Shown: piece by piece, positions 11,574 through 37,198 of the stretch
Numbering within the stretch: position 1 is the first letter of the stretch
Layout of the letters: each line of letters opens with the position of its first letter
Origin: Candidatus Omnitrophota bacterium
Lineage (GTDB): Bacteria; Omnitrophota; Gorgyraeia; Gygaellales; Profunditerraquicolaceae
Direction of reading: 5' to 3'
Assembly (NCBI GenBank): GCA_903852325.1
Contig: CAINQO010000035.1
Location: 34,117 to 98,116 of the forward strand
Length of the DNA: 64,000 nucleotides
Notes under the pieces: generated by a model
Database searches by the model: none
Told to the model about the DNA's origin: nothing
Seen by the model: only the letters and a program-made list of their open reading frames with translations
Program-made: the position numbers and the translations under genes

Positions 11574-12635
11574 ATGTCCTTAGCCAGGGAGTATCTTTAT
11601 AATCTGGTTACCGGTAAGACCAAGGGTCCCGGAGCCGCATTTTTAAGAGGGATTTTATTTATTCTTTCCCTGATTTACGGTTTTATTGTCATTCTCCTTG
11701 CCGGTTTCTATAAAATAAGGCGCCGGCGCCTTCCGGCCAAGGTGGTCAGTGTCGGCAATATCACCCTGGGCGGGACAGGAAAAACTACTTTAGTCCAATA
11801 TTTATCGGTTAAATTGAGCGCCGCAGGCAATAAAGTGGCTGTCTTGACCCGGGGGTATAAACGTAACGCGCAGCTTGAGGGGACCAGGGGGATGGGGGAT
11901 GAGCCGTTAATGCTCGCGGAAAAACTTCCGCAAATTCCGGTGATCGTGAACAAGGACCGGCTAAAAGCCGCCAGGCAGGCGGTCAGGGATTATGCTTGCG
12001 ATACGCTGATCCTGGATGACGGGATGCAGCAGTGGAAACTGGATAAAGACCTGGAGATCGTGACCATCGACGCGGCAAATCCTTTCGGCAATTTACGCCT
12101 GCTTCCGGCGGGGTTTTTGCGTGAGCCGCTCTCTGCCCTTAAGCGTGCGGATATTTTTGTCATTACCCAAACTTCCTGCGTCCGGGATCCAGGCGCTTTA
12201 GCGGATAAGCTTACGCGGATCAACCCCCGGGCGCTGATCGTCGAATCCAACCACGCGCCAAAAGGGTTAAGTCCCCTGGAGGCCCCGGATAAAGAATTAG
12301 GGTTGCCGGCGCTTAAAGGTAAGACCGCGGCGGTATTTTCCGGGATCGGTAACCCGGAGGGTTTTGAAAAATGCCTGCGCGGGCTGGGCATTAAATATAT
12401 GAAAATTTACCGGTTCCCGGACCATCATGCTTATACCCAAAATGATATCCTGGAAATCCTCCAGGCAGCCCGGAAGGATAAGCTGGAGATGGTGATCACG
12501 ACGCAAAAAGACGCGGTGAAACTCCGCAAAACAGGGATCAAGGATTCCGGGATACTGGTCCTGGAGATAAAACTAGAGATCACTAAAAATGAAGCAGAAT
12601 TTGATCGTCGATTACTGCGCTTACATTCTATTTAG
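11574..12635 (+). CDS. lpxK: tetraacyldisaccharide 4'-kinase
   Basis: N-terminal TM helix plus the GNITLGGTGKTT P-loop. Confidence 0.9.
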   Translation: MSLAREYLYNLVTGKTKGPGAAFLRGILFILSLIYGFIVILLAGFYKIRRRRLPAKVVSVGNITLGGTGKTTLVQYLSVKLSAAGNKVAVLTRGYKRNAQLEGTRGMGDEPLMLAEKLPQIPVIVNKDRLKAARQAVRDYACDTLILDDGMQQWKLDKDLEIVTIDAANPFGNLRLLPAGFLREPLSALKRADIFVITQTSCVRDPGALADKLTRINPRALIVESNHAPKGLSPLEAPDKELGLPALKGKTAAVFSGIGNPEGFEKCLRGLGIKYMKIYRFPDHHAYTQNDILEILQAARKDKLEMVITTQKDAVKLRKTGIKDSGILVLEIKLEITKNEAEFDRRLLRLHSI

Positions 12636-14592
12636 GGTAGTAAGTTTTTTTACTTATTTCCTCCCCTTGAATTTCAGCCTGTTCCTGGGCCGCCGGCTGG
12701 GGGACCTGGTATTTTTTTTAGACCGCAGGCACCGGGCGGTCGCTTACGCCAATATCCGCCGCACCGTCGCGGAAAAATTGGACACCGGGGCATGCGCCAG
12801 GATCGCGCGCAAAAGCTACCAGGCGTTCGGGCAAAATTTAATCGAGATTTCTTTTATTCCGCGCATCAATAAGCGGTATTTGCAGAAATATATCCGGATT
12901 GAAGATAAGGAATACGGCTATCAGGCTTTTGACCGGGGCAAAGGGGTAATTTTTTTGATCGTCCATGAAGGGAATTGGGAGCTTTCCAATATCATCATGG
13001 CAAATTTAGATGTGGCCTTTGTGTTGTTTGTCCGGGACCAGGGGTTACCCCGGTTAAACGCCCTGCTGAATAAATACCGGCTGGCCCATGGAGCTAAGAT
13101 CATGCATAAGGACGCCAGCCTCCGGCAGCTGATCGAAGTGCTTAAGAGTAACCAGTCCGTGGGGATGACCGTGGACCAGGGGGGGAAAATCGGGGTAGGG
13201 GTAAATTTCTTCGGCAAAGATGCCTCGATGTCTACGGGAGCGGTAAAGCTGGCGCTAAAATACGATTGCGCGATCATCCCTATTTTTTATACCCGGGTGA
13301 AAGGCCCCTATTCTAAAGTAATCTTAGACCAGGTTTTTACGGCTACCCGCACCGGGGATGAAGAAAAAGACCTCCGGGATAACCTGCAAAGACTGTTTGT
13401 CATTTATGAAAAATACCTGCGTAAATATCCGCATGAATTGCTCTGGACGTATAAGATTTATAAATACAGCCGGGAGCGGGATGTGCTGATCCTTAGCGAC
13501 GGCAGGACCGGCCACCTGCGCCAATGCGAGGCAATAGCGGAGTTGACCCGCCGGCAATTGGAGGAGCGGGGGATAAAAACGCACCTGGCGGTCCGGGAGA
13601 TAAAATTCCGCTCCAAGCCGCGCGCCTTTTTATTGGGTTTATTGGCGAAGTCCACCGGTAAATATGAATGCGGGGGGATTGGGGCGCGTTATTTACGCCA
13701 TGCCTTGACCCCGGAAAGCTGGGAAAGCCTGATGGGGGTCAACCCGGAGATCGTGATTTCCGCCGGCGGCTCGGCCGCGGCGGTAAATTATCTTTTGAGC
13801 GTTGAAACCCAGTCTAAGTCCATCGTCTTGATGCGGCCGGGCTTGCTGAGTTTGAATAAATTTAACTTAGCGCTTATTCCCCGGCATGACTGGCCAGAGG
13901 GCCGTGGTTTGCCATTTTTTTGGCAAAGCCATCTGGGAGGCGGCAAGCTCCCGGCTAAAAATACCATAATCACCGAAGGGGCGCTTAATTTAATTGATTC
14001 CCGGTACCTGATCCAAAAAGCTAAAAGTTTTTCCGGATCAGGATTATTGCGGGGGCCTTTGCATGACCCCTGTATCGGGGTATTGCTCGGCGGAAACAGC
14101 AGGGATTTTTCTTTAGAGCCGCAGGCTATCCGGGAATTGGCGCAGGAGGTCAAAAAAGCCGCCCGGGAGTTAAACGCGGATATCCTGATCACCACCTCCC
14201 GGCGCACTCCGGAAACCGTAGAGTCGCTGCTCAAGGATGAATTTACCGCAGAGCCGCGCTGCAAGCTGTTGGTGATCGCCCGGGAAAACAGTAATCCGGA
14301 TGTGGTGGGAGCGATATTGGGATCAAGCCGGGTTTTGATCAGCTCTCCGGAAAGTATTTCGATGATCTCTGAATCCGTAGCCGCGGAAAAATACGTGGTC
14401 GTGTTTCAGGCGGGCAAGCTGGGCGCAAAGCACACGCGTTTCCTGAAATATTATCAGGATAAGGGTTATATTTATTTAGAACAGATCCAAGGCGTTTCCC
14501 GGAGGATCAGTCAGTTGCTCAAAGACAGGCCGGCGGTGAATTTTCCGCAGGACAATTTAAAAGTCAGCGAGGGGTTAAAGAGGATATTGTAA
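12589..14592 (+). CDS. fusion of an LpxL/LpxM-like lipid A secondary acyltransferase (N-terminal) and an ELM1/DUF1022-like domain (C-terminal)
   Basis: N-terminal ~295 aa carry VHEGNWE (HX4E acyltransferase motif). The C-terminal ~370 aa begin VLILSDGRTGHLRQCEAIAE, as in ELM1-family proteins. The start overlaps lpxK by 47 nt and is uncertain. Confidence 0.75.
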   Translation: MKQNLIVDYCAYILFRVVSFFTYFLPLNFSLFLGRRLGDLVFFLDRRHRAVAYANIRRTVAEKLDTGACARIARKSYQAFGQNLIEISFIPRINKRYLQKYIRIEDKEYGYQAFDRGKGVIFLIVHEGNWELSNIIMANLDVAFVLFVRDQGLPRLNALLNKYRLAHGAKIMHKDASLRQLIEVLKSNQSVGMTVDQGGKIGVGVNFFGKDASMSTGAVKLALKYDCAIIPIFYTRVKGPYSKVILDQVFTATRTGDEEKDLRDNLQRLFVIYEKYLRKYPHELLWTYKIYKYSRERDVLILSDGRTGHLRQCEAIAELTRRQLEERGIKTHLAVREIKFRSKPRAFLLGLLAKSTGKYECGGIGARYLRHALTPESWESLMGVNPEIVISAGGSAAAVNYLLSVETQSKSIVLMRPGLLSLNKFNLALIPRHDWPEGRGLPFFWQSHLGGGKLPAKNTIITEGALNLIDSRYLIQKAKSFSGSGLLRGPLHDPCIGVLLGGNSRDFSLEPQAIRELAQEVKKAARELNADILITTSRRTPETVESLLKDEFTAEPRCKLLVIARENSNPDVVGAILGSSRVLISSPESISMISESVAAEKYVVVFQAGKLGAKHTRFLKYYQDKGYIYLEQIQGVSRRISQLLKDRPAVNFPQDNLKVSEGLKRIL

Positions 14593-14598
14593 TTAAAA

Positions 14599-14664
14599 AG
14601 GAAGGGCGGATTGAATCCCGCCCTTCCTCAGCGATTTAAGTTAGCAAAGGAAGGGTTGGGATGA
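14599..14664 (+). promoter_or_regulatory. three-arm SD-copy / anti-SD / SD switch with short uORF upstream of the GT4-GT9 gene
   Basis: AGGAAGGGCGG (14599-14609) pairs with CCGCCCTTCCT (14618-14628). The same middle arm can instead pair with AGGAAGGGTTGGGA (14648-14661), which holds the SD and the A of ATG 14661. The uORF runs from TTG 14611 to TGA 14664. Confidence 0.55.
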
Positions 14665-16754
14665 AGATTTTACAAATTTTGCCGGAACTTAATGTCGGAG
14701 GGGTAGAGACCGGGACGGTGGACCTTTCCCGTCATCTGGTGCGCCTGGGGCATAAATCGGTGGTGGTTTCCGCCGGCGGAGCGCTGGTCAAAGAACTGGA
14801 GGAGGCGGGGGCTAAACACTATCAACTGCCGGTAAATAAAAAATCCATCATCTCCATGATCAAGCTGGTTCCGGAGTTAGCCGAAATTATCAAACGGGAA
14901 GGGATCGAGATCGTACATGCCCGCTCAAGGGCGCCGGCCTGGATCGCTTATTTTGCCTGCCGAAGGACCCAGGCGGTATTCGTTACCACTTGCCACGGTT
15001 ATTACCAGAAACATCTTTTTAGCGCGGTAATGGGCTGGGGCAAAAAAGTGATCGTTTTAAGCAACGTGATCGCCCGGCACATGATCGAGGATTTTGCCGT
15101 TCCCCATGAGCGGATCAAGCTGGTGCCGCGCAGCGTGGATCTGGAGAAATTTAAATACCGGGACCCTAAAAACAAAAGGAAAGAAGATTTTAATGTCGGT
15201 ATCATCGGCCGGATCACCCCGCTAAAAGGGCATTTGCATTTTATCAAAGCCATGGCACGCATTTCCCGCTCCGTCCCGCGCCTGAAGATCTGGATCGTCG
15301 GCGATGCTCCGGCTTCCAAGGAAGCTTATAAAGAAGAACTGCAAATTTTAGTGCGCCGCCTGGGTTTATGGCATTGCACGGAATTTCTGGGCACGCAGCG
15401 GGATATTCCGGGAATATTGGAGAACCTGGATCTGGTGGTTTTAGCCACGACTACTCAGGAGGCCTTCGGCAGGGTGGTTGTAGAGGCGCAGGCCTGCGGG
15501 GTACCGGTGGTGGCGACCAGGGTCGGAGGGGTGATCGATATTATCGAGGACGGCAAGAACGGGCTCCTGGTCCCTCCGGCGGATTCCAAAAGCATGTCGG
15601 AGGCGGTGATGCGTATTTTTAAGGACGCGGAATTCGCCCGCATCCTGGCGGAAAATGCCTACGCTAAGGTCAAAGAAAAATATAATGTGGAATTGATGGT
15701 CAAAAATACTTTAGAGGTTTACCGGGAGGCGCTGAATAATTTTAAGATCCTGGTGATCAAGCTCAGTTCTTTAGGGGACGTGATCCTTTCTACGGCGGCC
15801 TTAAGGGCGATCCGGGAAAAATTTCCCCAAAGTAAATACAAGATAAGTTTTCTGGTCGGGGAAGAATCCAAGGACCTGCTTTTGCGCTGCCCGTATATCG
15901 ACGAACTTCTGGTTTGCGACTTAAAAAATAAGGACCGCGGCCCCTTCGGTTTGCTGAGGATGGGTCAGCTTTTACGGAAGAAAAATTTCGACTCGGTGAT
16001 CGATCTGCAAAATAGCCGTTCCAGCCACCTGCTGGCTTATCTGAGCGGTTGCGTCCACCGCTACGGATATGACAATAAAAAGTTTTCCTTTTTGCTCAAC
16101 TACCGGATCCAGGATCAAAAAACCCCGCTGGACCCGGTAACCCACCAGTTCAGGATCCTTAAGCTGCTGGGGATCGACCTGTTGAATAATGCCCTTGAGC
16201 TTTGGCCTTCCGCGGAAGACCGGGAGAAGGTGGAGGAACTTTTTAATTCCCAATGGTTGAGCCAGGTGCAGAAAGTGGTGGGGATCAATATCAGCGCTTC
16301 CTCCAGATGGGAGACAAAACTCTGGCCGCTGGAATACGTGATCACCCTGTGTGAAGAACTGGAAGCCAGGGATATCCGGGTGGTCATTACCGGTAAGCAA
16401 GAGGATCAGCCGCGCGCCAACATGCTCGTCGATTCGCTTAAGAACACCAAGGTGATCAATGCCTGCGGCAAGACCAATATCAACGAATTGGCGGTGTTGA
16501 TCAAAAAATGCAATGTGTTCATCTCCGCCGATTCTTCTCCTTTGCATATCGCTTCCGCGGTGGGCACTCCTTTTGTCGCTTTGTTCGGCCCGACGGATCC
16601 TTTGCGGCACCTTCCCCCCGGGGCTAATTACGCGGTGATCGATAAGAAATTGAATTGCAGCCCTTGTTATAAAAATAGATGCCGCAGTAAGCGCTGCATG
16701 ATCGAGATCGATCCGGCGCAGGTTTTTGAAGCGGTAATGAAGTTATTGAAATAA
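14661..16754 (+). CDS. fusion glycosyltransferase: GT4 (N-terminal) plus GT9 heptosyltransferase-like (C-terminal)
   Basis: The N-terminal half has a GT4 E(x7)E-type region (EAFGRVVVEAQACGVPVV). The C-terminal half starts FKILVIKLSSLGDVILS and ends with GPTDP...CSPC, typical of GT9. Confidence 0.8.
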   Translation: MKILQILPELNVGGVETGTVDLSRHLVRLGHKSVVVSAGGALVKELEEAGAKHYQLPVNKKSIISMIKLVPELAEIIKREGIEIVHARSRAPAWIAYFACRRTQAVFVTTCHGYYQKHLFSAVMGWGKKVIVLSNVIARHMIEDFAVPHERIKLVPRSVDLEKFKYRDPKNKRKEDFNVGIIGRITPLKGHLHFIKAMARISRSVPRLKIWIVGDAPASKEAYKEELQILVRRLGLWHCTEFLGTQRDIPGILENLDLVVLATTTQEAFGRVVVEAQACGVPVVATRVGGVIDIIEDGKNGLLVPPADSKSMSEAVMRIFKDAEFARILAENAYAKVKEKYNVELMVKNTLEVYREALNNFKILVIKLSSLGDVILSTAALRAIREKFPQSKYKISFLVGEESKDLLLRCPYIDELLVCDLKNKDRGPFGLLRMGQLLRKKNFDSVIDLQNSRSSHLLAYLSGCVHRYGYDNKKFSFLLNYRIQDQKTPLDPVTHQFRILKLLGIDLLNNALELWPSAEDREKVEELFNSQWLSQVQKVVGINISASSRWETKLWPLEYVITLCEELEARDIRVVITGKQEDQPRANMLVDSLKNTKVINACGKTNINELAVLIKKCNVFISADSSPLHIASAVGTPFVALFGPTDPLRHLPPGANYAVIDKKLNCSPCYKNRCRSKRCMIEIDPAQVFEAVMKLLK

Positions 16755-16806
16755 GCAATATACCTGGCGCTTAGTGGTATTGCGCCAGTACGCGCCACGT
16801 GGCGCG

Positions 16807-16894
16807 AGGGGCGGGATGACCCCGCACCATCTTCTAATTCACGCTTTAAGTCCTAAGGTTTAATAACAATTAACTATAAGGATGGTGCGGGGTG
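16807..16894 (+). promoter_or_regulatory. anti-SD/SD hairpin module upstream of the GT4 gene (degenerate uORF)
   Basis: CCCCGCACCATCTT (16820-16833) pairs with AAGGATGGTGCGGGG (16879-16892) over 14 bp including one G-U. The GTG start is at 16892. Confidence 0.55.
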
Positions 16895-17992
16895 CGGATT
16901 TTATTTTTAGCCAATCATCTTAATGTCGGGGGGATCTCCAGTTACTTGCTGACCTTGGGTAGCGGATTGAAAGAAAAAGGGCATGAGGTTTATTTGGCCT
17001 CCGGGGGCGGTGAATTAGAGGAAAAATTCCGGCAGGCCGGAATAATCCTGATCAATGTCCCCTTGAAAACAAAAAGCGAGATCAGTCCGAAGATCCTGAT
17101 CAGTTACTGGAAATTAAAAAAGGCCGCTGCCGGTTTGCGGATCGAGCTTATTCATTCGCACAGCCGGACCACCCAGGTTTTGGGATGCTGGCTGGGCCGC
17201 TCCCTGGGCAGGCCGCATATTTTTACCTGCCACGGTTTCTTTAAACCGAAACTGCCGCGCAAGGTTTTCGGCTGCTGGGGCCAAAGGGTAATTGCTATCA
17301 GCTCCCAGGTCAAAGAGCACTTGACCGCGGATTTTAAATTCAGCGAAAATAAGATTAGCGTGATCCATAACGGCATCGACACGCAAAAATTCGGGGATTT
17401 TTCGGGAAGGGACCGCTTGCGCAGCAGTTTAGGGGTCGCCCCGGATGGTTTTTTGATCGGGATCATCGCCCGCCTCTCCGATGTGAAGGGGCATCTTTAC
17501 CTTATCCGGGCGATGCCGGAGATTTTAAAAAAATTCCCCGGGACCAAATTAGCGATAATCGGTCAGGGTAAGACCGAAGGCTCTTTGGTCAAAGAAACAG
17601 GGAATTTAGGGTTAGAGGGCAATATTTTATTTGTCCCGGAAGCAAAAGATACCCGGGAATGGCTTTGCGCCATGGATGTTTTTGCCATGCCTTCGCTGCA
17701 GGAAGGCTTGGGGCTGGCTTTGATGGAAGCGATGGCTCAGGGTTTAGCCGTGGCCGGATCGGCGGTAGGGGGGATCAAAACCCTGGTCCAGGATAAAATT
17801 ACCGGACTGCTGGTCCCGGCGCGGGATGCGGGGGCGCTGGCGCAGGCGATCATCTCTTTGCTTGGGGATCCGGATTTACGCCGTAATTTAGGGGATCAGG
17901 CGCGCGAATTTATCGCCGCTAATTTTTCTAAAAAAGAAATGGTGGAAAAGACCGAAGGCCTTTACCGGCAGGTTTTAAATCCCAATGAGTGA
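16892..17992 (+). CDS. GT4 family glycosyltransferase
   Basis: MRILFLANHLNVGGISSY start and a C-terminal EGLGLALMEAMAQGLAV motif. Confidence 0.85.
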   Translation: MRILFLANHLNVGGISSYLLTLGSGLKEKGHEVYLASGGGELEEKFRQAGIILINVPLKTKSEISPKILISYWKLKKAAAGLRIELIHSHSRTTQVLGCWLGRSLGRPHIFTCHGFFKPKLPRKVFGCWGQRVIAISSQVKEHLTADFKFSENKISVIHNGIDTQKFGDFSGRDRLRSSLGVAPDGFLIGIIARLSDVKGHLYLIRAMPEILKKFPGTKLAIIGQGKTEGSLVKETGNLGLEGNILFVPEAKDTREWLCAMDVFAMPSLQEGLGLALMEAMAQGLAVAGSAVGGIKTLVQDKITGLLVPARDAGALAQAIISLLGDPDLRRNLGDQAREFIAANFSKKEMVEKTEGLYRQVLNPNE

Positions 17993-19111: not shown

Positions 19112-21127
19112 ATGAAAATCCTTTTTGTCACCTTAAGCAATATCGGCGATTGCATCCTCACCTTGCCGGTGCTGGATGGGCTGCGGGAAAAATACCCGCA
19201 GGCCAAAATCACCTGCTTAGTCCCTCCGGGGCCCAAAGAAATCTTTACCGCTAACCCTGCCGTGGCCCGGGTGTTTATTTTTGATAAACACGCCAAATTG
19301 CAAGAGAAGGTCAAATTATTTTTTTCCTTAAGCCGGGAGGAGTTTGACCTGGTGATCGATCTGCGGAATAGTTTTTTCGGCGCTTTCTTACCGGCGAAAA
19401 AATGGAACTTGTTCAGCGGCCCCTTGCGCCGGATACCCGGAAAGATCAAGCACATGAAAGACCGGCATTTATACCGGGCATTAGGCCGGGATTATCCTCT
19501 CTTAAGGAAATACCGTTCTTTTAATATTAAGCCGCAGGATGATGATTATATCGAAAAAATATTGGGCCCGGCCGCAGGGAAGAAACTGATCGTGGTTGCC
19601 CCCGGGGCAAAAAGCCGGTCCAAGTGCTGGGCTAAGGAAAATTTCCGCCTGCTCTGCGGCCGGCTGGCGGAAGAGGGGAATCAAATCGTGCTGACCGGGG
19701 ATAAAGCGGATCAGGAGGCCTGTGCTTATATCCGCCGGGAGGGAATAATCGATCTGTGCGGCCGGACCGACCTGGCGCAATTAGGGGCCCTGCTTAAACG
19801 GGCGCGGCTTTTGATCAGCAATGACAGCGCGGCAATGCACCTGGCCAGTTACCTGAACGTGCCGGTGGCGGCGATTTTCGGGCCGACGGATGAAAAAAAA
19901 TACGGCCCCTGGTCGGATAAAAATATCGTGATCAAAAAAGAGGTTTTTTGCCGCCCCTGCGCCAAAGCCCAATGCCGCTCCCTGAGCCTTGATTGCCTGG
20001 AGGCGATCAAGCCGGAGGATGTCCTGCGGCAGATCGAGCCGTTGCTTAAAGAACAAAAGGATGCCGCACTTTCTTTGCAAAATGAAATCCGAAACGGATT
20101 CCGCCGGATCCTGGTGGTGCGCACCGACCGGTTAGGGGACGTGATTTTATCCACCCCGGCGGTAAAAGCCTTAAGGCAGGCGTTTCCGCAAAGCTATATC
20201 GCGATGCTGGTTTCTTCCTACGCTAAAGACGCGGTGGAAGGTAACCCGGATTTAGATGCGGTGCTCGTTTTCGATAAAGAAGCCAAAGATAAGGGCGTGT
20301 TCGGCAGTTTAAAGTTGGCGGGTGAGCTTAAACAAAAGCAGTTTGATCTGGCGGTGATCCTGCATCCCACGGTGCGGGTGCATTTATTGATGTTTATCGC
20401 CGGGATTCCCCGGCGCGTAGGTTATGACCGCAAATTTGATTTTTTACTCACCGACAGGATCCCGCACGTAAAACAAGAAGGGCAAAAACACGAATCCGAA
20501 TATACCCTGGATTTAATCCGCTACCTGGGGGTCGCTCCGCAAAGCCCCGCATTGTTTGTGCCGGTAAAACAGGAGTCGGAAAAGTGGGTGGAAGCTTTAT
20601 TCCGGCAAGAAGGGATCGGCCCCAAAGATAAATTGCTGGTGATCCATCCGGCGGCAAGCTGTATTTCTAAAATTTGGCCGGCAGAAAGGTTTGCCCTGGT
20701 CGCCGACAGGCTGGCGCAACAATACGGTTTTAAAGTCTGCATTATTGCCGGGCCGAAAGATATAAGTAAAGCGGAACTGGTGAGCAGGAGTATGCAGGTT
20801 CCTGCTCTGAACCTGGCGGCAAAAACAACGGTCAGTCAGCTGGCCAGTTTAATCAAAAGGGCGCAGCTATTTATTTCCACGGATTCCGGACCGGTGCATA
20901 TTGCTTCCGCTTTTTCTATCCCCCAGGTTACGATTTTCGGGCGCAGCCAGGCAGGGCTTAGCCCAGTGCGTTGGGGCCCGCAAGGGGAGAGGATCAGGAT
21001 TTTACATAAAGAAGTCGGCTGTACGGCTTGCCTGGCGCATGACTGCCTTCGGGAATTTGCCTGTATTAAATCCATTACGGTTGAGGATGTACTTGAAGCA
21101 GCGGAGGAACTGATTAGTGGATTCTAG
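19112..21127 (+). CDS. tandem double GT9 (two heptosyltransferase-like domains in one polypeptide)
   Basis: Domain 1 starts MKILFVTLSNIGDCILTLP. Domain 2 starts FRRILVVRTDRLGDVILSTP at about aa 330. Each has DS(A/G)..H and FGP...C..C motifs. Confidence 0.8.
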   Translation: MKILFVTLSNIGDCILTLPVLDGLREKYPQAKITCLVPPGPKEIFTANPAVARVFIFDKHAKLQEKVKLFFSLSREEFDLVIDLRNSFFGAFLPAKKWNLFSGPLRRIPGKIKHMKDRHLYRALGRDYPLLRKYRSFNIKPQDDDYIEKILGPAAGKKLIVVAPGAKSRSKCWAKENFRLLCGRLAEEGNQIVLTGDKADQEACAYIRREGIIDLCGRTDLAQLGALLKRARLLISNDSAAMHLASYLNVPVAAIFGPTDEKKYGPWSDKNIVIKKEVFCRPCAKAQCRSLSLDCLEAIKPEDVLRQIEPLLKEQKDAALSLQNEIRNGFRRILVVRTDRLGDVILSTPAVKALRQAFPQSYIAMLVSSYAKDAVEGNPDLDAVLVFDKEAKDKGVFGSLKLAGELKQKQFDLAVILHPTVRVHLLMFIAGIPRRVGYDRKFDFLLTDRIPHVKQEGQKHESEYTLDLIRYLGVAPQSPALFVPVKQESEKWVEALFRQEGIGPKDKLLVIHPAASCISKIWPAERFALVADRLAQQYGFKVCIIAGPKDISKAELVSRSMQVPALNLAAKTTVSQLASLIKRAQLFISTDSGPVHIASAFSIPQVTIFGRSQAGLSPVRWGPQGERIRILHKEVGCTACLAHDCLREFACIKSITVEDVLEAAEELISGF

Positions 21128-21144
21128 GTTGAGGAGTGGGGATT

Positions 21145-21247
21145 GGGTCGAGTAGTGGGATAGGTAGTGCGGGTGAGTTGTGGGGTAGACCAACTACTAA
21201 TCCACACAACCTAACGCACTACTTTACCTAACCCACACTACTCACCC
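21145..21247 (+). repeat. imperfect long hairpin with a GT-rich arm and an AC-rich arm (AGTAGTG / GGGTTAGG motif family)
   Basis: Arm 21145-21188 versus arm 21194-21247 share the blocks GAGTAGTG, TAGGT, AGTGCG, GTTGTG and GTAG. The element is related to 58420-58490. Confidence 0.5.
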
Positions 21248-21276
21248 TATGCTCGATTTTGGCTATCCAGTAATGC

Positions 21277-21304
21277 TTGATTTGTCAGCAAATTGTGTTA
21301 AAAT
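21277..21304 (+). promoter_or_regulatory. sigma70-like promoter candidate immediately upstream of ATG 21316
   Basis: TTGATT (21277-21282), a 16-nt spacer, then TGT-TAAAAT (21299-21304). There is no SD before ATG 21316. Confidence 0.3.
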
Positions 21305-21315
21305 CATTATCTATT

Positions 21316-22245
21316 ATGATCAACTTAAAGAAGGTTAAAAGATATTCGCTTAAAGCCCGTTTAAGCAAGGTAAATAAGGGGGATTTTGCCCTTAAACCGG
21401 CTAAAGGCAGGAGTTTTTCCGTTTTTTTTGACTCCTTACCTAATATTTTAAAAGCCAAAGATTTACGCTCGGTTTCTGCCGATATTATCGCGGCGCGCCG
21501 GAAAAATAAAGGGGTGATTTTAATGGCCGGGGCCCACGTGATCAAGTGCGGGCTTAATCCGGTTTTGATCGAGTTGTTGGAAAAAAAAGTGATTACCTGT
21601 ATCTGCCTTAACGGGGCCGGATTGATCCACGATTTTGAGATCGCCTACCAGGGGAAGACTTCGGAAGATGTGGCCGCCAACCTCAAAGACGGGAAATTCG
21701 GGATGGGGATCGAGACCGCGGATTTTATCAACGCCGCGGTCAAAGAAGGGACTGAGGCGGGCTTTGGATTAGGTTATGCCTTAGCCAATAAAATGGCCGG
21801 GGCAGCTTTACCCAATAAAGATCTAAGCCTGATTTATAATGCCTATAAGCGTAAAATCCCGGTTTGTGTTTTTGCGGCGATCGGTACGGATATAATCCAT
21901 CAGCACCCTTCTTTCGACGCTGCGGCAACCGCCGTGGGCTCATTGCGGGATTTCCATATCCTGGTGGAGAGGATCCGCTCCTTGAATCAGGGGGGAGTGG
22001 TTTTAAATTTCGGCTCCGCGGTGCTTTTGCCTGAAGTATTTTTAAAGGCTTTGAACCTTGCCCGCAACCTGGGCAGCAAAGTGAAAGATTTTACTTCCGC
22101 TAATTTCGATATGATTTACCAGTACCGCGCGGCACAGAATGTAGTGAGCCGTCCCACCGCTTCCGGGGGTAAAGGCTATTATATTATCGGTCACCATGAG
22201 ATCATGCTGCCGCTTTTAGCCCAAAGTATATTGGAAAAAATCTGA
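21316..22245 (+). CDS. deoxyhypusine-synthase-like (DHS-fold) family protein, function unknown
   Basis: MAGAHVIKCGLNPVLIELLEKKVITCICLNGAGLIHDF and IPVCVFAAIGTDIIHQHP resemble DHS-family blocks; this is a by-eye call only. ATG 21316 is preferred over the track's TTG at 21277. Confidence 0.45.
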   Translation: MINLKKVKRYSLKARLSKVNKGDFALKPAKGRSFSVFFDSLPNILKAKDLRSVSADIIAARRKNKGVILMAGAHVIKCGLNPVLIELLEKKVITCICLNGAGLIHDFEIAYQGKTSEDVAANLKDGKFGMGIETADFINAAVKEGTEAGFGLGYALANKMAGAALPNKDLSLIYNAYKRKIPVCVFAAIGTDIIHQHPSFDAAATAVGSLRDFHILVERIRSLNQGGVVLNFGSAVLLPEVFLKALNLARNLGSKVKDFTSANFDMIYQYRAAQNVVSRPTASGGKGYYIIGHHEIMLPLLAQSILEKI

Positions 22246-22317
22246 CCCCGCACCTTCTTCGTATTCGATCTGAAGGTCAGGGGTAAAAAATAGTTAATAA
22301 TAGGAAGGTGCGGGGTG
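22246..22317 (+). promoter_or_regulatory. anti-SD/SD hairpin module between the DHS-like gene stop and the heptose kinase start
   Basis: CCCCGCACCTTCTT (22246-22259) begins directly after the TGA stop (22243-22245). It pairs over 14 bp with AGGAAGGTGCGGGG (22302-22315). The GTG start is at 22315. Confidence 0.6.
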
Positions 22318-23328
22318 AAGAACCTAAAAGAGATTGTCCGCAAATTCAAGCGGGCTAATATTTTGGTCGTCGGAGACCTGATCCTGGATGAATACATCTG
22401 GGGCGCGGTGGAGAGGATCTCTCCGGAGGCTCCCGTGCCGGTGCTTTGGGCCAACAAACGTACTTTTGTTCCCGGGGGCACCGCTAACGTGGCCAATAAC
22501 ATCGGCTCCTTCGGGGCAAAAGTGACTCTTTTGGGGGTCACCGGTTCCGACGCGAACTCCAAGATTTTGCTGGGCGAATTAAAGAAGAGAAAGATCGATA
22601 CGCGGGGTATTTTTGTCGAAAAAAATCGGCACACTACGGTCAAGACGCGGATCCTGGCCGGGCATCAGCAGGTAGTCCGGGTGGATTGGGAACATACCCA
22701 TGATCTGTCTCAAGAGTTAAACGATAAGATTTTAAAATTCATCCAGAAGAATATCGATGATTTCGACGCGATCATTATCGAGGATTACGGCAAAGGGGTA
22801 ATCAATGTCCCGCTCTTGAAAACGCTGATCGCTTTGGCGAAAAACCATAAAAAAATCATTACCGTTGATCCGAAAGAGGAGAACTTTCAGTTTTATCGGT
22901 CGGTAGATTCGATCACTCCTAACCGCAAGGAGCTGGAAAACGCGATAAGGAATTTGAAGATCCAGGACACGACCAACGGTTTCAAGATCAATACGGATAA
23001 ACTCTTTACGGATAAGGATGTGGACCGGGCTGCCCGGGAGATCCTGGAATACCTGCGTCTTGATTCTATTCTGGTTACCCTGGGGGAGCACGGGATGAAA
23101 CTTTTGGAAAAGAACGGCCGCCTTACCCATATTCCCACGGTAGCCCAGGAAGTTTTCGATGTTTCCGGCGCGGGGGATACCGTAATCAGCACCTTTACCC
23201 TGGCTTTAAGCGTGGGCGCTTCCAAATTAGAGGCGGCGCACATCGCCAATTTTGCCGCAGGGATAGTGGTAGGTAAATTGGGCACGGCAGTGACCAACAC
23301 TAAAGAACTATTAGAAAGGATTAAATAA
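22315..23328 (+). CDS. hldA: D-glycero-beta-D-manno-heptose-7-phosphate kinase (RfaE domain I type, stand-alone)
   Basis: ILVVGDLILDEYIWGAVERISPEAPVPV and the PfkB C-terminal motif DVSGAGDTV. No adenylyltransferase domain is present. Confidence 0.85.
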   Translation: MKNLKEIVRKFKRANILVVGDLILDEYIWGAVERISPEAPVPVLWANKRTFVPGGTANVANNIGSFGAKVTLLGVTGSDANSKILLGELKKRKIDTRGIFVEKNRHTTVKTRILAGHQQVVRVDWEHTHDLSQELNDKILKFIQKNIDDFDAIIIEDYGKGVINVPLLKTLIALAKNHKKIITVDPKEENFQFYRSVDSITPNRKELENAIRNLKIQDTTNGFKINTDKLFTDKDVDRAAREILEYLRLDSILVTLGEHGMKLLEKNGRLTHIPTVAQEVFDVSGAGDTVISTFTLALSVGASKLEAAHIANFAAGIVVGKLGTAVTNTKELLERIK

Positions 23329-24082: not shown

Positions 24083-24881
24083 TGTGGGAAAAATAAAATT
24101 CGGAGACCGCTACCCGCTGGTTTTGATCGCCGGCCCTTGCGCGATCGAATCGGAAAGTTCCTGCCTTGAGGCGGCGGCAAAGCTCAAGGAGATTACCGCC
24201 GGCTTAGGCGTTCCGTTCATCTTCAAGTCCAGCTTTGATAAGGCCAACCGGCTTTCCGTGGGGTCTTACCGCGGTCCGGGGCTAAAAAAAGGGTTGGCTA
24301 TTTTAAAGAAAGTAAAGTCGAAACTGAAACTCCCCATTTTAAGCGATGTGCATTGCGTGCATGATGTCGAGCCGGCCGCGCAGGTCCTGGATATTATCCA
24401 GATCCCGGCGTTTTTGAGCCGCCAAACCGATATTGTTTTAGCCGCCGGGCGCACCGGTAAAGTGGTGAATATTAAAAAAGGCCAGTTCCTGGCCCCCTGG
24501 GATATTTTACCGATTATCAAAAAAGTGGAAAGCACGGGGAATAAACAGATTTTAATCACTGAACGCGGAGCAAGCTTCGGTTACAATAATTTAGTCACGG
24601 ATTTCCGGAGTTTAGCGATCATGCGGGATTTTGGCTATCCGGTAATTTATGACGCTACCCACAGCGTGCAGCTTCCCGGAGGCCAGGGCGGCTGTTCGGG
24701 AGGGCAGACCCAGTTTGTCGCCGGGTTGTCCCGGGCGGCGGTGGCTTTTGGCTGCGACGGTTTATTTTTGGAGGTGCACGCTAACCCCAAAGCCGCTCCC
24801 TGCGACGGGCCGAACATGATCAACTACCGGGAATTGGAAGAGCTTTTAAAGCAAATCAAAAGGATCAGCCAGGTAATATAA
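24069..24881 (+). CDS. kdsA: 2-dehydro-3-deoxyphosphooctonate aldolase (Kdo-8-P synthase)
   Basis: VLIAGPCAIES, FKSSFDKANR and DATHSVQLPGG motifs. Confidence 0.95.
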   Translation: MHPVNVGKIKFGDRYPLVLIAGPCAIESESSCLEAAAKLKEITAGLGVPFIFKSSFDKANRLSVGSYRGPGLKKGLAILKKVKSKLKLPILSDVHCVHDVEPAAQVLDIIQIPAFLSRQTDIVLAAGRTGKVVNIKKGQFLAPWDILPIIKKVESTGNKQILITERGASFGYNNLVTDFRSLAIMRDFGYPVIYDATHSVQLPGGQGGCSGGQTQFVAGLSRAAVAFGCDGLFLEVHANPKAAPCDGPNMINYRELEELLKQIKRISQVI

Positions 24882-24899
24882 ACTTTAATAAGGTGCGGG

Positions 24900-25868
24900 A
24901 TGAGTATTGATTTGATCAAACGGGCAAAAGAAGTTTTGGAAATCGAAGCGCAGGCAGTGCGCCGGTTAAAGGGGTGCCTGGATAAAGGTTTTATTAAAGC
25001 GGTTGAGCTGATCCTGAAGAGCAAGGGCAGGGTAGTGGTTAGCGGAATGGGCAAGACCGGAATTATCGCCCAAAAATTTTCCGCGACTCTTGCTTCGACC
25101 GGGACCCCCAGTTTATTCCTGCATACCGCCGAAGCTATTCACGGGGATTTAGGCAAGGTTACCGCGGATGATGTGGTGATCATCCTTTCTAACAGCGGTT
25201 CGACCGAGGAGATGAAACAGCTTTTGCCGATCCTCAAAAAGATCGGCGCTCCGATCATTTCTTTGACCGGCAACACCAAATCCATTCTGGCCAAATACAG
25301 CGATGTGGTCCTGGATGTCTCCGTGAAAAAAGAGGCCTGTCCGTTAGGTTTGGCCCCCACGGCTTCCACTACCGCGGCTTTGGCGATGGCCGATGCCCTG
25401 GCGGTCTGCCTGCTGGAACGTAAGGGGTTTAAAGAAAAGGATTTTGCATTTTTCCATCCTGGGGGCACTTTAGGCAAGCGCCTGCTTTTGAGCGTCGCGG
25501 ATATCATGCGCCAGGGGCAGTCTAATGCCATTGTCCGCGAGGATAAATTGGTGGCGGAAGTTTTGTTGGCGATTACCCGGGCCCGGGCCGGCAGCGCTAT
25601 TGTGGTGGATAAGCAGGGAAAACTGAAGGGGATATTCACCGACGGAGACCTGCGCCGGCATTTAGCCACCGACAAGTATTTACCGCAGCGGCCGATCAAA
25701 GAAGTAATGACCAAAAACCCCACGGTAGTGAGCAAAGATATGCTGGCGGCAGAGGCGATGCGGATATTACAGGCCAGGAAGATCGATGAAGTCCCGGTGG
25801 TGGATAAATTCAGGCGCCCGGTGGGCTTATTGGATGTCCAGGACCTGCTTAAAGCCGGATTAATTTAA
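24900..25868 (+). CDS. kdsD: arabinose-5-phosphate isomerase (SIS plus tandem CBS)
   Basis: GRVVVSGMGKTGIIAQKF SIS motif and a C-terminal CBS pair. Its initiation string AAGGTGCGGGATG belongs to the recurrent family. Confidence 0.9.
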   Translation: MSIDLIKRAKEVLEIEAQAVRRLKGCLDKGFIKAVELILKSKGRVVVSGMGKTGIIAQKFSATLASTGTPSLFLHTAEAIHGDLGKVTADDVVIILSNSGSTEEMKQLLPILKKIGAPIISLTGNTKSILAKYSDVVLDVSVKKEACPLGLAPTASTTAALAMADALAVCLLERKGFKEKDFAFFHPGGTLGKRLLLSVADIMRQGQSNAIVREDKLVAEVLLAITRARAGSAIVVDKQGKLKGIFTDGDLRRHLATDKYLPQRPIKEVMTKNPTVVSKDMLAAEAMRILQARKIDEVPVVDKFRRPVGLLDVQDLLKAGLI

Positions 25869-27403: not shown

Positions 27404-28106
27404 GGGCCTGGCTAAATCCTATGACGGTCGCTGGGTGGTTAAGGGCGTGGATATCACGGTCAAGCGCGGGGAGATCGTCGGGCTTTTAGGCCCCAACGGA
27501 GCCGGCAAGACTACTACTTTTTATATGATCGTCGGGATCGTCCCCCCCAACAAGGGCACGATCGTTTTTGATAACCATGAAATCACCCGGATGGCGATCC
27601 ACGAGCGGGCGCGTTTCGGGATCGGCTATCTTGCCCAGGAACCCTCGATATTCCGGAAACTGACCGTGGAAGAAAATATCAACGCGATCCTGGAGACTTT
27701 GCCTTTGAGCCGCGCGCAGAGAAAAAACCGGCTGGCGTTTTTGCTGGAGGAGTTGAATATCGCGCACCTGGCAAAGCATAAAGCCTACACTTTAAGCGGC
27801 GGAGAGAGAAGGCGCCTGGAGATCACCCGGGCGCTGGTGACCAATCCTTCTTTTATCCTGCTGGATGAACCTTTCAGCGGGATCGACCCGATCGTCGTCA
27901 ATGAAGCGCAGGAGATCATTAAGGAATTAAAGGCCAAAGGCCTGGGTATTCTTTTGACCGACCATAATGTGCGGGAGACCCTGGCGATCACCGACCGGGC
28001 GTATTTAATTTCCGAAGGGGCGATCCTTATTTCCGGATCCGCGGAGGAGCTGATTAATCACCCTCAGGCCCGCCAGGTTTATTTAGGTGAGAAGTTTAGG
28101 ATGTAA
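27384..28106 (+). CDS. lptB: LPS export ABC transporter ATP-binding protein
   Basis: Walker A is GPNGAGKTT, the signature is [11 protein letters not shown] and Walker B is ILLDEP. The C-terminus is YLGEKFRM. Confidence 0.95.
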
Positions 28107-28248
28107 CCCCGCACCTTCTTCTGTATTCGGAAGAAAAACGGATTGATTAAAGGCGCGGGACAATAATAACCATGGTCATTTCTTTAAACATCAAGGTTCA
28201 AAGCTTAGATGCAGGGAATGATATAATTAAGAAAGAAGGTGCGGGGTG
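28107..28248 (+). promoter_or_regulatory. anti-SD/SD hairpin module (109-nt loop) between the lptB stop and the tig start
   Basis: CCCCGCACCTTCTT (28107-28120) begins directly after the TAA stop. It pairs perfectly over 14 bp with AAGAAGGTGCGGGG (28233-28246). The GTG start is at 28246. Confidence 0.6.
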
Positions 28249-29133
28249 AAAACCGAAGTTAAGAAATTAGACGGAACTAAACGTGAAATTAATGTCGCCG
28301 TGACCGGCGACTTGGTCAAAAATAAATTTGAAGAAGTTTTCGCACAGGTCGCCAAAGAAGCCAAGGTCCCGGGTTTTCGCCCGGGAAAAGCGCCCCGGGA
28401 TCTTCTGGAAAAGCATTACGGTTCCAGCGTCCATGAGCAGGTGTTAAAGGAGCTGGTCCCGGATGTGTATAACCAGGCGGTCGCGGCGGAAAAACTCGAT
28501 GTCATTGAGCTGCCCCAGATCACCGATGTGCAGCTGGATCGGGCCAGCCTTTCTTTTAAAGCGGTCGTGGAGGTCAGCCCGGAAATTACGCTGAAGAATT
28601 ATAAAAACCAGGTAATTAATTATAAGCTGCCGGTTGTTTCCGCGGATGAAGTGAAACGCCAGATCGACTCGGTCAAGGAATCGCGTAAGGCCGAAAACCT
28701 GGATGATAAATTCGCCCGCTCCCTGGGTTATCCTGATTTAGGGGAATTGGAAAAAGCGGTGGAAAGACAGATCTTTCTTACCAAGGAGAATCAGGAACGC
28801 CAGCGGATTGAAAATGAATTAATCGAAAATATTACCAAAGGGGTGGAATTTAAGCTGCCGCAAGGATTGGTGGACCGGCAGGTTCAGGATATGCTGCGGC
28901 AGACCAAGATCGATTTGGCGATGAAAGGGCTGCCCCGGGAGAAGATCGACGCGCAGGATAAATTGCTTTTAGAGGGGATCGAACCGGAAGCAAAAAAGCA
29001 GGTCAAGATTTACCTGATCCTGGCGCAGATCGCGAAAAAAGAGAATATCGCCATCGACGACCATATGCCGCGCAAGGTGATGGAGTTTCTGCTGGGTGAA
29101 GCAGAGTGGAAGGCTGCACAAGAGAATAAATAG
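28246..29133 (+). CDS. tig: trigger factor-like chaperone lacking the PPIase domain
   Basis: The N-terminal ribosome-binding signature GFRPGKAP is present. The C-terminal arm domain follows directly, giving 295 aa versus about 430 for canonical TF. Confidence 0.8.
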   Translation: MKTEVKKLDGTKREINVAVTGDLVKNKFEEVFAQVAKEAKVPGFRPGKAPRDLLEKHYGSSVHEQVLKELVPDVYNQAVAAEKLDVIELPQITDVQLDRASLSFKAVVEVSPEITLKNYKNQVINYKLPVVSADEVKRQIDSVKESRKAENLDDKFARSLGYPDLGELEKAVERQIFLTKENQERQRIENELIENITKGVEFKLPQGLVDRQVQDMLRQTKIDLAMKGLPREKIDAQDKLLLEGIEPEAKKQVKIYLILAQIAKKENIAIDDHMPRKVMEFLLGEAEWKAAQENK

Positions 29134-31076: not shown

Positions 31077-31090
31077 ATTTAGAGAAAGAG

Positions 31091-35804: not shown

Positions 35805-35852
35805 ATATCGAACGAGAGAGTAGTTAGCAGGCTGAATGCGGGTTAGTTAACA

Positions 35853-37198
<1,346 letters not shown>

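Follow-up and report, generated by a model that had tools for sequence, protein, structure and literature searches.

Bacterial MITEs are elements of <200 bp that carry terminal inverted repeats and flanking direct repeats, occur in many copies without a transposase, give rise to a stable RNA hairpin and leave filled and empty sites (PMC3184786, PMC10969869). The element analysed here is like known MITEs (Correia/NEMIS of Neisseria, Nezha of cyanobacteria and RUP of pneumococcus) in its size, its terminal and flanking repeats, its many copies, its RNA hairpin, its lack of a transposase and its filled and empty sites, but differs from them in that its target is the overlap between the stop of one cistron and the start of the next, its right repeat serves as an SD and completes a new start codon, a relay ORF begins at the former start, and 83/83 copies have one orientation relative to genes. 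The two reviews (PMC3184786, PMC10969869) mention neither an overlap target nor an SD/start repeat, a relay ORF or a single orientation. Neisseria REP2 and Borrelia IR-A/IR-B are likewise repeats scattered through intergenic DNA, located just ahead of genes to which they contribute an RBS and an ATG (PMC3184786). REP2, however, carries a promoter and no terminal inverted repeats, whereas no promoter-like site is present in our element, which also differs from REP2 and IR-A/IR-B in being sited within operons, at the junction of a stop and a start, with terminal inverted repeats, a duplicated flank and a uORF that overlaps both neighbours. REP/REPIN sequences, in turn, are palindromes of about 20–40 nt found in both orientations or as inverted doublets and without target duplication, whereas here the arms are ~50 nt apart, 83/83 copies share one orientation and the flanks are duplicated. 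The arms resemble the IS5 terminal repeat, which we take to be GGAAGGTGCG, but with the opposite polarity (GGAAGG is outermost in IS5, CCCCGC here), and kinship to IS5 was not used as evidence.

The second body of relevant work concerns translational coupling, for which RNA-unfolding and reinitiation models are both established (PMC12548453). Gaps of about 20 nt almost abolish termination-reinitiation coupling (PMC10666635), and a relay would therefore be needed across the ~73 nt at issue here. As in rpmI-rplT, MS2 coat-lysis and f1 VII-IX, where the RBS is masked by a traversed upstream pairing and cistrons meet in 4-nt ATGA/GTGA overlaps (PMC12548453, PMC10666635, PMC6728339), the RBS would be masked in our element; unlike in those systems, mask and RBS arrive on an inserted repeat, a short intermediate ORF that overlaps its neighbour at each end links two full-length genes, and the cassette, known here from sequence, recurs at unrelated junctions. 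The leader attenuators of ermC and cat also combine a short leader ORF with alternative helices, one of which masks an SD, but they use a regulated stall and their leader ends before the masked SD, whereas the uORF of the element reads through the SD to the start codon, shows no evident stall signal and is accompanied by an extra arm that is not conserved. In the synthetic bicistronic designs of Mutalik et al. 2013 and Mendez-Perez et al. 2012, a leader cistron reportedly holds the SD, with its stop overlapping the gene start, and the helicase activity of the ribosome is said to clear local structure. Those cassettes are engineered and sit behind promoters, whereas the element is natural, mobile and located between genes, so that the likeness is one of possible working, not of ancestry. 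Literature on Omnitrophota SD sequences, RNA motifs or inverted repeats, and on MITEs associated with coupling or a stop codon, yielded no description of the element.

Three arms and a 17-codon ORF at the GT4-GT9 junction

The locus lies at 14599-14664 of the window, by which we mean the whole 64-kb stretch of DNA that was analysed and in which all genes are on the + strand. Its parts and immediate neighbours are as follows.

12589..14592, + strand: upstream gene, an LpxL-type acyltransferase fused to an ELM1-like domain (ORF list; Pfam PF03279 and PF06258)
14599-14609, + strand: arm 1, AGGAAGGGCGG, an additional right inverted repeat of the element (subfamily AGGAAGGGCGG)
14611..14664, + strand: uORF of 17 codons, TTG to TGA (translation; family uORFs)
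14614..14628, + strand: arm 2, the left terminal inverted repeat, AUCCCGCCCUUCCU (fold and constrained energies)
14629..14647, + strand: truncated spacer (length distribution; alignment A1; covariance-model alignment with a large deletion)
14648..14662, + strand: arm 3, the right terminal inverted repeat, comprising the SD (GGAAGG) and the first two start-codon bases (helix)
14661..16754, + strand: downstream gene for a 697-aa glycosyltransferase, a GT4-GT9 fusion (ORF; domains; 80 orthologous loci)

As read from the sequence, the LpxL-ELM1 gene stops at the TAA of 14590-14592, and arm 1 starts 7 nt past it, where it is SD-like for the uORF start at 14611. Sequence and translation confirmed the three arms and the 17-codon uORF at the positions given in an earlier note on this DNA, including the way in which the uORF ends on the next gene: it reads (M/L)NPALPQRFKLAKEGLG*, begins at TTG 14611 rather than at an ATG, and its stop, TGA 14664, overlaps ATG 14661 as ATGA. 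The core of arm 2, CCGCCCTTCCT at 14618-14628, is a perfect 11-bp complement of arm 1 across an 8-nt loop, and arm 2 as a whole is an anti-SD whose partner can be either arm 1 or arm 3 (AGGAAGGGTTGGGA at 14648-14661, one change, C to TT, from the subfamily consensus). Constrained folding bore out that the two helices are mutually exclusive, at -22.7 kcal/mol for arm1:arm2 and -25.8 kcal/mol for arm2:arm3, which makes the two structures nearly isoenergetic (within ~3 kcal/mol). The arm2:arm3 pairing is real but larger than first described: RNAfold gives 14 bp instead of 13, joining 14614-14628 to 14648-14662 with one G-U and one bulged U, and the helix takes in the A and U of the AUG, not the A alone. 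Which fold dominates switches with the length of the flanks (P(arm2:arm3) of 0.78, 0.99 or 0.13), and the 106-nt region is more stably folded than shuffled versions of it (z = -3.2; 0/200 shuffles as good).

The first hairpin had been called terminator-like, and its perfect 11-bp G+C-rich stem just past a stop codon, which a terminator scanner lists as such, would suit a plain intrinsic terminator of the upstream gene formed by arms 1 and 2, with the GT4-GT9 gene served by its own promoter. The scanner made its call on the minus strand only, however, where the T run lies but no gene does; on the + strand the stem is preceded by AAAAA and followed by CAGCGAUUUAAG, that is, by no U tract, so that the label holds for the minus strand alone. 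There is, furthermore, no promoter-like site in 14630-14661, all genes of the 64 kb face the same way, and in relatives the LpxL-ELM1 and GT4-GT9 genes overlap by 4 nt and are hence co-translated there. We consider a terminator of this kind highly improbable.

Neither did the locus resemble a known structured RNA. An Rfam scan of the whole window at the gathering score returned no matches, and a permissive scan of 14500-14760 reached at best 20 bits against thresholds of 59-79, its candidates (RsaE, L20 leader, Xist and RsmZ) being on the wrong strand or far under the cut-off; no tRNA or tmRNA was found near the locus. An altered anti-SD in the host 16S rRNA, prompted by the resemblance of the arm GCACCUUCU to the 16S 3' end, was unnecessary and was dropped because other genes in the window use canonical GGAGG.

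The same arms invite a more elaborate reading, put forward in the earlier note, according to which this is a dedicated three-arm translational switch: ribosomes ending the LpxL-ELM1 gene would melt arm 1 and free arm 2 to mask the GT4-GT9 SD (or the reverse), and upstream translation would thereby tune the downstream gene. Consistent with it are the two exclusive helices of similar energy, whose preferred fold varies with context, and the start of arm 1 within reach of a ribosome terminating 7 nt upstream. Yet either helix would still allow the GT4-GT9 gene to be translated, directly if arm 3 is free and via the uORF if it is masked, which leaves no clear off state.

Copies of the element in the window and in other genomes

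The segment 14599-14664 is a truncated member of a dispersed inverted-repeat element of ~75 nt that is common in Candidatus Omnitrophota. The kinship with copies bearing 26-aa uORFs, already suspected in the earlier note, held up in a covariance model built from 83 canonical copies with this one left out, which aligned to 14609-14666 (+) with 25.6 bits (E~7e-4), compared to 8.9 bits for the reverse strand. The element is MITE-like, has no transposase gene and, across the 83 aligned copies, is bounded by terminal inverted repeats of 12-14 bp, (A)CCCCGCNCCTTCT on the left and AGAAGGNGCGGG(G/A) on the right. The copy under study belongs to the GGAAGGGCGGG arm subfamily and is flanked by TTGAA and ATGAA. 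At least 7 copies occur in the window. Each is intergenic, runs in the direction of the genes and has its arm 3 joined to a start codon; those beyond our locus are listed here.

16813..16897, + strand: next family copy, upstream of a GT4 gene (GTG 16892); covariance model 51.2 bits, outside the training set
22239..22320, + strand: canonical two-arm copy, arm 3 fused to GTG 22315 (PfkB-family kinase); 62 bits
24889..24902, + strand: solo right arm TAAGGTGCGGGATG, SD and start for gene 24900, no left arm (sequence)
28104..28251, + strand: long-spacer copy with 116 nt between the arms, arm 3 fused to GTG 28246 (trigger factor)
35851..35935, + strand: canonical copy with a complete 26-aa uORF, fused to GTG 35930 (purA); 78 bits
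53551..53721, + strand: tandem array, last unit fused to ATG 53716 (scpA); covariance model 27.4 and 73.3 bits

In the copy at 16813..16897, the arms are a compensated variant (CCCCGCACCATC / GATGGTGCGGGG), and an arm-1-like GGGGCGGGATGA precedes them. In the copy at 22239..22320, arm 2 directly follows the upstream TGA; it is flush with a TAA stop in the long-spacer copy, part of which the covariance model covers. The junction orthologous to the solo right arm holds a full element in contig L079 (copy at 2963, followed by a 322-codon ORF), and the array consists of a solo right arm directly after the stop, a degenerate unit (53561-53636) and a canonical unit (53637-53721). The 11-mer of arm 1 is found again at 53551, right behind a different stop codon and in front of a different copy. 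Four of the 8 GTG starts in the window are made by the element, and the genes that carry it are functionally unrelated (purA, tig, scpA, LPS glycosyltransferases, a kinase).

In Candidatus Omnitrophota MAGs, we found >100 copies. The two-arm pattern matched >114 stretches in reference genomes, nearly all of them Omnitrophota MAGs, compared to a chance expectation of ~9 by our own estimate. In 96 non-redundant copies arm 3 leads into RTG and a reading frame of ≥60 codons, with RTGA in 89/96. Non-orthologous copies within one genome can be as much as 84-94% identical, and such paralogous copies can exceed orthologous ones in likeness.

The arms hardly vary between genomes or loci, a constancy beyond what pairing alone needs, and the element always sits on the gene strand, fused to start codons. 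Both properties would also be expected if it were a vertically inherited, non-mobile leader of a regulon, in which a protein or RNA acting in trans binds the arms and controls many Omnitrophota genes. The unrelated functions of the carrier genes argue against this, as does a sister family that shares the architecture although its arms (CCCCGTTAGAA/TTCTAACGGGG) are very different. So do the orthologous junctions, which hold different subfamilies or nothing while paralogues in one genome are sometimes more alike, and the precise filled and empty sites described below. We therefore regard a regulon leader as improbable, even more so than the three-arm switch.

Compared to the rest of the family, our locus is atypical in several respects. 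The left arm normally follows the stop directly, with the TGA inside the ATGA, whereas here arm 2 starts 22 nt past the TAA with arm 1 in between, an arrangement shared by a minority of copies (L009, L119, L130 and the window copy at 53551). The spacer measures 19 nt vs 46-52 nt in canonical copies, and the inner competitor arm and the AAUAAGAAA tract are absent from it (14629-14647), which is consistent with an internal deletion. The 17-codon uORF is a short version of the relay ORF typical of the family (MNPAPS...KEGAG) and keeps only fragments of its peptide consensus. Contigs L001-L003, which encode the identical protein, are identical across the element and hence uninformative on strain variation.

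These comparisons weigh on the three-arm switch. In its favour, an inner competitor for arm 2 is present in 63/83 family copies, making competing helices common. Arm 1 itself, however, is not conserved: segments resembling it are confined to copies with the upstream stop ≥14 nt distant, and most copies have none. All arms at the locus are close to the subfamily consensus, as expected of recent copies rather than of a maintained sensor. By analogy with 53551-53721, arm 1 is probably the leftover right end of a second, tandem copy. Alternative helices arise automatically from tandem inverted repeats and do not by themselves imply a switch; the pairing seen here would follow from a tandem or remnant copy, and an evolved sensor need not be invoked.

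Filled and empty junctions

The GT4-GT9 junction is empty in 42/75 orthologous metagenomic loci, where only a 4-nt ATGA is found and the upstream gene's TGA stop overlaps the ATG of the next gene. About 12 loci hold a family element flush with the TGA, two of them (L186 and L194) with the same arm 2 subfamily, and where relatives do have an arm 1 it is degenerate (L119, L130). The next junction, with the copy at 16813..16897, is empty (ATGA/GTGA) in 35/79 relatives. These counts come from a generic complementarity test; an earlier regex classifier had undercounted degenerate copies. With the element missing from 42/75 relatives, and most filled ones having arm 2 flush with the stop and no arm 1, a regulated switch at the GT4-GT9 gene is weakly supported: the three arms and mini-ORF are probably not purpose-built for regulation, and we consider the dedicated three-arm switch unlikely.

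Pairs of filled and empty loci resolve the event to the nucleotide. In L173/L156 and L181/L158 (90% identical flanks), as well as in L133/L131 (83% flank identity), the difference is exactly the element plus TGA, such that empty sites have one TGA(A) and filled sites two. The dinucleotide after TG, moreover, agrees between left and right flanks (TGAG/TGAG, TGGA/TGGA; Fisher p = 9e-5). Terminal inverted repeats, a target-site duplication and filled as well as empty orthologous sites are all as in MITEs. The aligned loci show how the element enters: precisely in the TGA(A) of an ATGA overlap between co-directional genes, with duplication of the TGA(A). The upstream gene thereby retains its TGA stop, while the old ATG opens a short ORF through the element. 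The right repeat, for its part, brings an SD (GAAGG), its last base and the duplicated TG making a new GTG or ATG start, and the short ORF usually ends in a TGA overlapping that start. An arm2...arm3 pair 400-4000 nt apart, as might mark an autonomous parent with a transposase, had no candidate in the 1.42 Mb of genome portions searched.

A predicted helix into the start codon and a proposed relay ORF

Across the family, RNAalifold recovered a 14-bp consensus helix, which extends over the start codon and contains covarying positions. The nucleotide preceding arm 2, which the search pattern left free, changes in step with the start codon's first base (CG 53, UA 17, other 13; p = 2e-8). The modal distance puts the upstream TGA inside the uORF's ATGA, and the spacer has a length in the uORF frame class in 55/96 copies, or 50/83 of those aligned (p = 5e-7). 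The uORF frame is stop-free in 33/83 copies vs 1 and 4 for the other two frames, and the spacer is oriented with the gene in 83/83. Taken together, the frame bias, stop avoidance, uniform orientation and covariation into the start codon suggest that the uORF relays ribosomes through an SD-masking helix. Against this, the absolute orientation bias could stem from a strand-specific insertion mechanism and not from selection on the uORF, and the covariation and open frame could partly reflect recent copying from few master copies. The relay cannot be obligatory, because only about a third of copies (33/96) retain a complete in-frame uORF; in many, the uORF stops 18-59 nt short of the start.

The open frame and a peptide consensus recognisable across genomes (MNPAPS...KEGAG) could also mean that the uORF encodes a functional micropeptide, the RNA features being secondary. 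Conservation analysis gave no sign of peptide-level constraint, however: the 49-nt class has no codon-position periodicity (entropy of 1.06 at position 1, 0.95 at position 2 and 0.96 at position 3), the inverted repeats by themselves fix the conserved ends of the peptide, frameshifts or truncations affect many copies, and the one at 14611 retains only pieces of the consensus. A functional micropeptide is, in our judgement, very doubtful.

We favour the explanation, with a probability of about 0.8, that 14599-14664 is a decayed copy of the MITE-like element, with a duplicated TGA(A), a rebuilt start and a relay uORF. In the mRNA, the two repeats would pair as a ~14-bp helix hiding the SD and the first two start-codon bases. 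Ribosomes ending the upstream gene would restart on the short ORF, opening the helix during its translation, then terminate on the RTGA and restart on the downstream gene, and translational coupling would in this way survive a 70-nt insertion. At this locus, most of the spacer seems to have been lost, and an extra right repeat (arm 1), probably from a tandem copy, lies ahead; arm 1 would provide an SD for the uORF and incidentally compete with arm 3 for arm 2. The proposal that upstream translation unmasks the SD is therefore retained in part. As a reading of the family it accounts best for the comparative data, because of the stop/start overlaps at both uORF ends, the frame bias, the stop-codon avoidance and the helix that includes the start codon; as a dedicated switch at this locus it is not supported.

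More tentatively, and extrapolating from the density of copies in the window, such a translationally 'transparent' mobile element could occupy a hundred or more operon junctions per Omnitrophota genome, rebuilding each ATGA as two overlaps by way of a relay mini-ORF and bringing an SD, a start codon and an SD-masking helix of its own. It might then parallel in nature the engineered bicistronic design, perhaps co-opted to restrict the translation of downstream genes to ribosomes handed on from the upstream gene, with the three-arm copy as a variant in which the relay ORF has acquired an SD.

The element accounts for the near-identical SD/start motif ahead of unrelated Omnitrophota genes and for intergenic gaps of ~70 nt where relatives have 4-nt overlaps, and gene finders may either annotate or overlook its short conserved 'genes' (MNPAPS...). 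Sites at which it is present or absent could serve as strain and lineage markers in metagenomes, and the element offers a natural test bed for RNA unfolding vs reinitiation in coupling. If the relay works, this would be a mobile element that spares its host by keeping coupling, not by avoiding genes, which would explain how it came to fill operon interiors in very compact genomes.

The three-arm locus and its family

All the sequence features that an earlier note had listed between the LpxL-ELM1 and GT4-GT9 genes are found at their coordinates.

Features of the three-arm locus
14590-14592, + strand: stop codon TAA of the LpxL-ELM1 gene, from the sequence
14599-14609, + strand: arm 1, AGGAAGGGCGG, from the sequence
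14618-14628, + strand: arm 2, CCGCCCTTCCT, perfect complement of arm 1
14648-14661, + strand: arm 3, AGGAAGGGTTGGGA, from the sequence
TTG 14611 to TGA 14662-14664 (the TGA lying within ATGA), + strand: uORF (M)NPALPQRFKLAKEGLG, by translation
Start ATG 14661, + strand: GT4-GT9 glycosyltransferase, 697 aa, from its ORF and domains

Folding confirmed that the helices arm1:arm2 and arm2:arm3 are mutually exclusive and placed them close in energy (-22.7 versus -25.8 kcal/mol); which of them dominates varies with the length of flank supplied. The region folds more stably than its shuffles (z = -3.2). Arm 3 had been described as the SD plus the A of the ATG; that A is indeed paired, and so is the U, the 14-bp arm2:arm3 helix taking in the AU of AUG. 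The description of the arm1:arm2 hairpin as terminator-like does not apply to the strand that is transcribed: its run of Ts falls on the minus-strand side, and no gene lies there. Both flanking genes are LPS-cluster fusions, one joining a lipid A acyltransferase to an ELM1-like domain (12589-14592) and the other a GT4 to a GT9 heptosyltransferase-like domain (14661-16754), and the pair is conserved in ~80 metagenomic relatives.

Searching the window with the arm motifs gave a common design: upstream stands an anti-SD arm, CCCGCNCCTTC, and the complementary arm, GAAGGNGCGGG, runs directly into the RTG of the gene start. Such copies front unrelated genes (a second glycosyltransferase, a PfkB-family kinase, trigger factor, purA and scpA), their spacers are homologous too (repeat families D1 and D3), and units stand in tandem at 53548-53721. 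Rfam holds no family corresponding to the element. In a reference scan of one genome per species, the two-arm pattern occurred in more than 114 stretches among the matches listed, against ~9 expected by chance on our own estimate; nearly all of the matches listed were Candidatus Omnitrophota MAGs, with a few MAGs labelled Planctomycetes, plus unrelated taxa scattered at roughly chance level. Arm 3 leads into GTG (66), ATG (29) or TTG (1) in 96 non-redundant copies, each opening an ORF 60 codons or longer, and 89 of the 96 read RTGA. A covariance model trained on 83 canonical copies, with the three-arm copy left out, gave that copy 25.6 bits (E ~ 7e-4) on the gene strand, compared with 8.9 bits on the opposite one. 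The remark that its uORF is a shortened relative of the 26-aa uORFs was thus correct.

Decay of elements down to a lone SD plus start codon is suggested by a solo right arm, TAAGGTGCGGGATG, that serves as both in an 18-nt gap at 24879-24905; the orthologous junction of metagenomic locus L079 has a full element. At locus L181, the 281-nt intergenic gap upstream of the GT4-GT9 orthologue holds a family element whose spacer has grown to ~250 nt through extra repeat-like sequence (GATTACACAGATTAAAA words), apparently a second insertion nested inside the first.

The ATGA overlap as insertion site

Judged from its sequence, the element is an insertion in the ATGA overlap of adjacent genes and carries standard MITE signatures (features compared with PMC3184786 and PMC10969869), namely filled and empty sites, flank duplication, identity among copies within a genome, varying subfamilies and a sister family. 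We compared 80 metagenomic loci with GT4-GT9 orthologues (64-86% identity), 75 of them usable. The junction is empty in 42 of the 75, LpxL-ELM1 and GT4-GT9 overlapping by 4 nt (...TATGAAAATA...); in ~12, a family element runs from directly behind the TGA onto the start codon, and the remaining loci have short gaps or unrelated palindromic repeats. The next junction, between GT4-GT9 and GT4, shows a like pattern (35/79 empty). Where flanks are 90% identical, filled sites exceed empty ones by precisely the element and a single additional TGA: the empty L156 junction reads ..GAAGATATT ATGA ATATCCTTC.. and the filled L173 junction ..GAAGATATTA TGA (ACCCCCGCACC...GCGGGGG TGA) ATATCCTTC.., and the pairs L181/L158 and L133/L131 behave likewise. 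The two bases after TG, when not AA, match between left and right flanks (TGAG/TGAG, TGGA/TGGA; Fisher p = 9e-5), which is predicted by target-site duplication and not by RNA pairing. Non-orthologous copies in one genome reach 84-94% identity, and orthologous junctions across genomes hold differing subfamilies or no element. The sister family has unrelated arms and the same architecture, tgaA(CCCCGTTAGAA ... TTCTAACGGGG)tga, at the same junctions, flush with the upstream TGA and fused to the downstream GTG or ATG (L149 and L170 at the GT4-GT9 junction, L170 also at the next). These tests place the element among the MITEs, with a single gap: the 1.42 Mb of sequence searched yielded no autonomous parent.

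The filled/empty comparison also reveals the effect on the junction. The upstream gene keeps its TGA stop, and the former start ATG persists at the left edge, where it opens a short ORF (ATG AAC CCC GCA CCT TCT...) with the left repeat as its first codons. The right repeat brings GAAGG at SD distance, and its last base together with the duplicated TG forms the new start codon; hence the frequent GTG starts of genes behind the element (element-derived GTG starts, 4/8 in the window).

Other repeats lie between genes as well. The L149 sister element carries a separate AAGAGGAGG SD inside. Further intergenic families consist of short tandem words laid out as long imperfect palindromes (21125-21282, 31074-31246 and 58406-58526), for example with GTGGGG/TAGTGG mirrored by CCCACA/CACTAC, and also TTTAGAG/TTTGGATTT; they recur at the GT4-GT9 and next junctions in L155, L171, L162, L191, L179 and L193. 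As different lineages carry one or another of these families at the same operon junctions, such sites look like hot spots for several palindromic elements. Upstream of the next element copy, 16752-16812 contains a distinct palindrome rich in G+C, CCTGGCGCTTAGTGGTATTGCGCCAGTACGCGCCACGTGGCGCG; at that junction, L126 holds a comparable insert rich in GGCGC. An 86-nt direct repeat (85% identity; 29174-29259 and 55565-55650, also 55502-55528; D2, D6 and D9), containing TAAATTAAAAATTACCAC and an A/T-rich tail ending AAGGA, lies just upstream of two unrelated genes starting at 29267 and 55646, and could represent a promoter or leader common to both, or else a further family of repeats.

The uORF, the helix and a putative relay

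The most economical reading of the element's function would be a relay, in which ribosomes leaving the upstream gene would restart on the uORF, open the helix while translating it, terminate on the RTGA and restart on the downstream gene. Among the recognised mechanisms of coupling is masking of a downstream RBS that upstream translation relieves (PMC12548453), and termination-reinitiation coupling is nearly gone at a gap of ~20 nt (PMC10666635). Within the family, the upstream TGA most commonly lies inside the uORF's ATGA (23 copies), and the upstream stop is at most 14 nt away in ~38 further copies. The spacer-length class that places the uORF's TGA on the new start comprises 55 of 96 copies (50/83 aligned, p = 5e-7). 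Shared ancestry of the copies inflates two further signals: the uORF frame is stop-free in 33 of 83 copies, versus 1 and 4 for the other two frames (spacer 72% A+T), and the outermost variable pair of the 14-bp consensus helix, joining the base before arm 2 to the start codon's first base, covaries (C-G 53, U-A 17, other 13; p = 2e-8) at a position left free by the search pattern. The full uORF is kept by only about a third of the copies, and its conservation shows no codon-position periodicity, so selection, if any, would act on its translation rather than on the peptide.

Relative to the gene, the spacer has the same orientation in 83/83 copies, though the terminal repeats are symmetric; a strand-specific insertion mechanism could account for this. 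All ~62 plausible genes across window positions 1-64000 lie on the + strand, an extreme bias that bears on whether element orientation follows genes or replication.

Arm 1 and the proposed single-gene switch

The earlier note took the alternative helices for a switch, read out by ribosomes terminating on the upstream gene. This is physically possible, and a ribosome terminating at the TAA would extend as far as the base of arm 1, favouring the arm2:arm3/uORF path; conservation, however, gives the mechanism no backing, and the switch reading is largely accounted for by the element family. Of the 83 copies, 63 contain a further, degenerate SD arm inside, able to pair with arm 2 (mean -13.4 versus -7.5 kcal/mol for shuffled spacers), which makes competing helices a family trait. 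The arms of the three-arm copy belong to the subfamily CCCGCCCTTCC/GGAAGGGCGGG, found flush with the TGA at the GT4-GT9 junction in L186 and L194; arm 2 is the subfamily consensus, arm 3 departs from it by one change (C to TT), and the spacer is 19 nt versus the usual ~49, which would fit an internal deletion.

Arm 1 is a further right repeat, followed by TTGAA in place of GTGAA. The order stop, right repeat, RTGAA, left repeat is also seen at 53551 and, in degenerate form, at the GT4-GT9 junction in L009, L119 and L130. Segments resembling arm 1 are confined to copies in which 14 nt or more separate the upstream stop from arm 2; there the uORF has no overlap to restart from and needs an SD of its own. 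From this recurring arrangement and restriction, we infer that arm 1 is the remnant of a tandem copy, now the uORF's SD, and its hairpin with arm 2 would then be an automatic by-product. With arm1:arm2 paired, arm 3 would be free for GT4-GT9 translation; with arm2:arm3 paired, arm 1 would be free, the uORF translated and the mask unwound, so that both folds would allow GT4-GT9 translation.

Neisseria REP2 and the Borrelia IR repeats likewise supply an RBS and start codon, but the Omnitrophota element differs in having terminal inverted repeats, in lacking a promoter and in lying within operons. Its putative action functionally resembles natural coupling by RNA unfolding and reinitiation, and also the engineered bicistronic design. 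In the part of the literature covered, we found no account of any repeat that has stop/start overlaps as its target and reconstructs them through a relay ORF, and no report of the family in Omnitrophota. The interest lies in the element family behind the locus, rather than in a single-gene switch.
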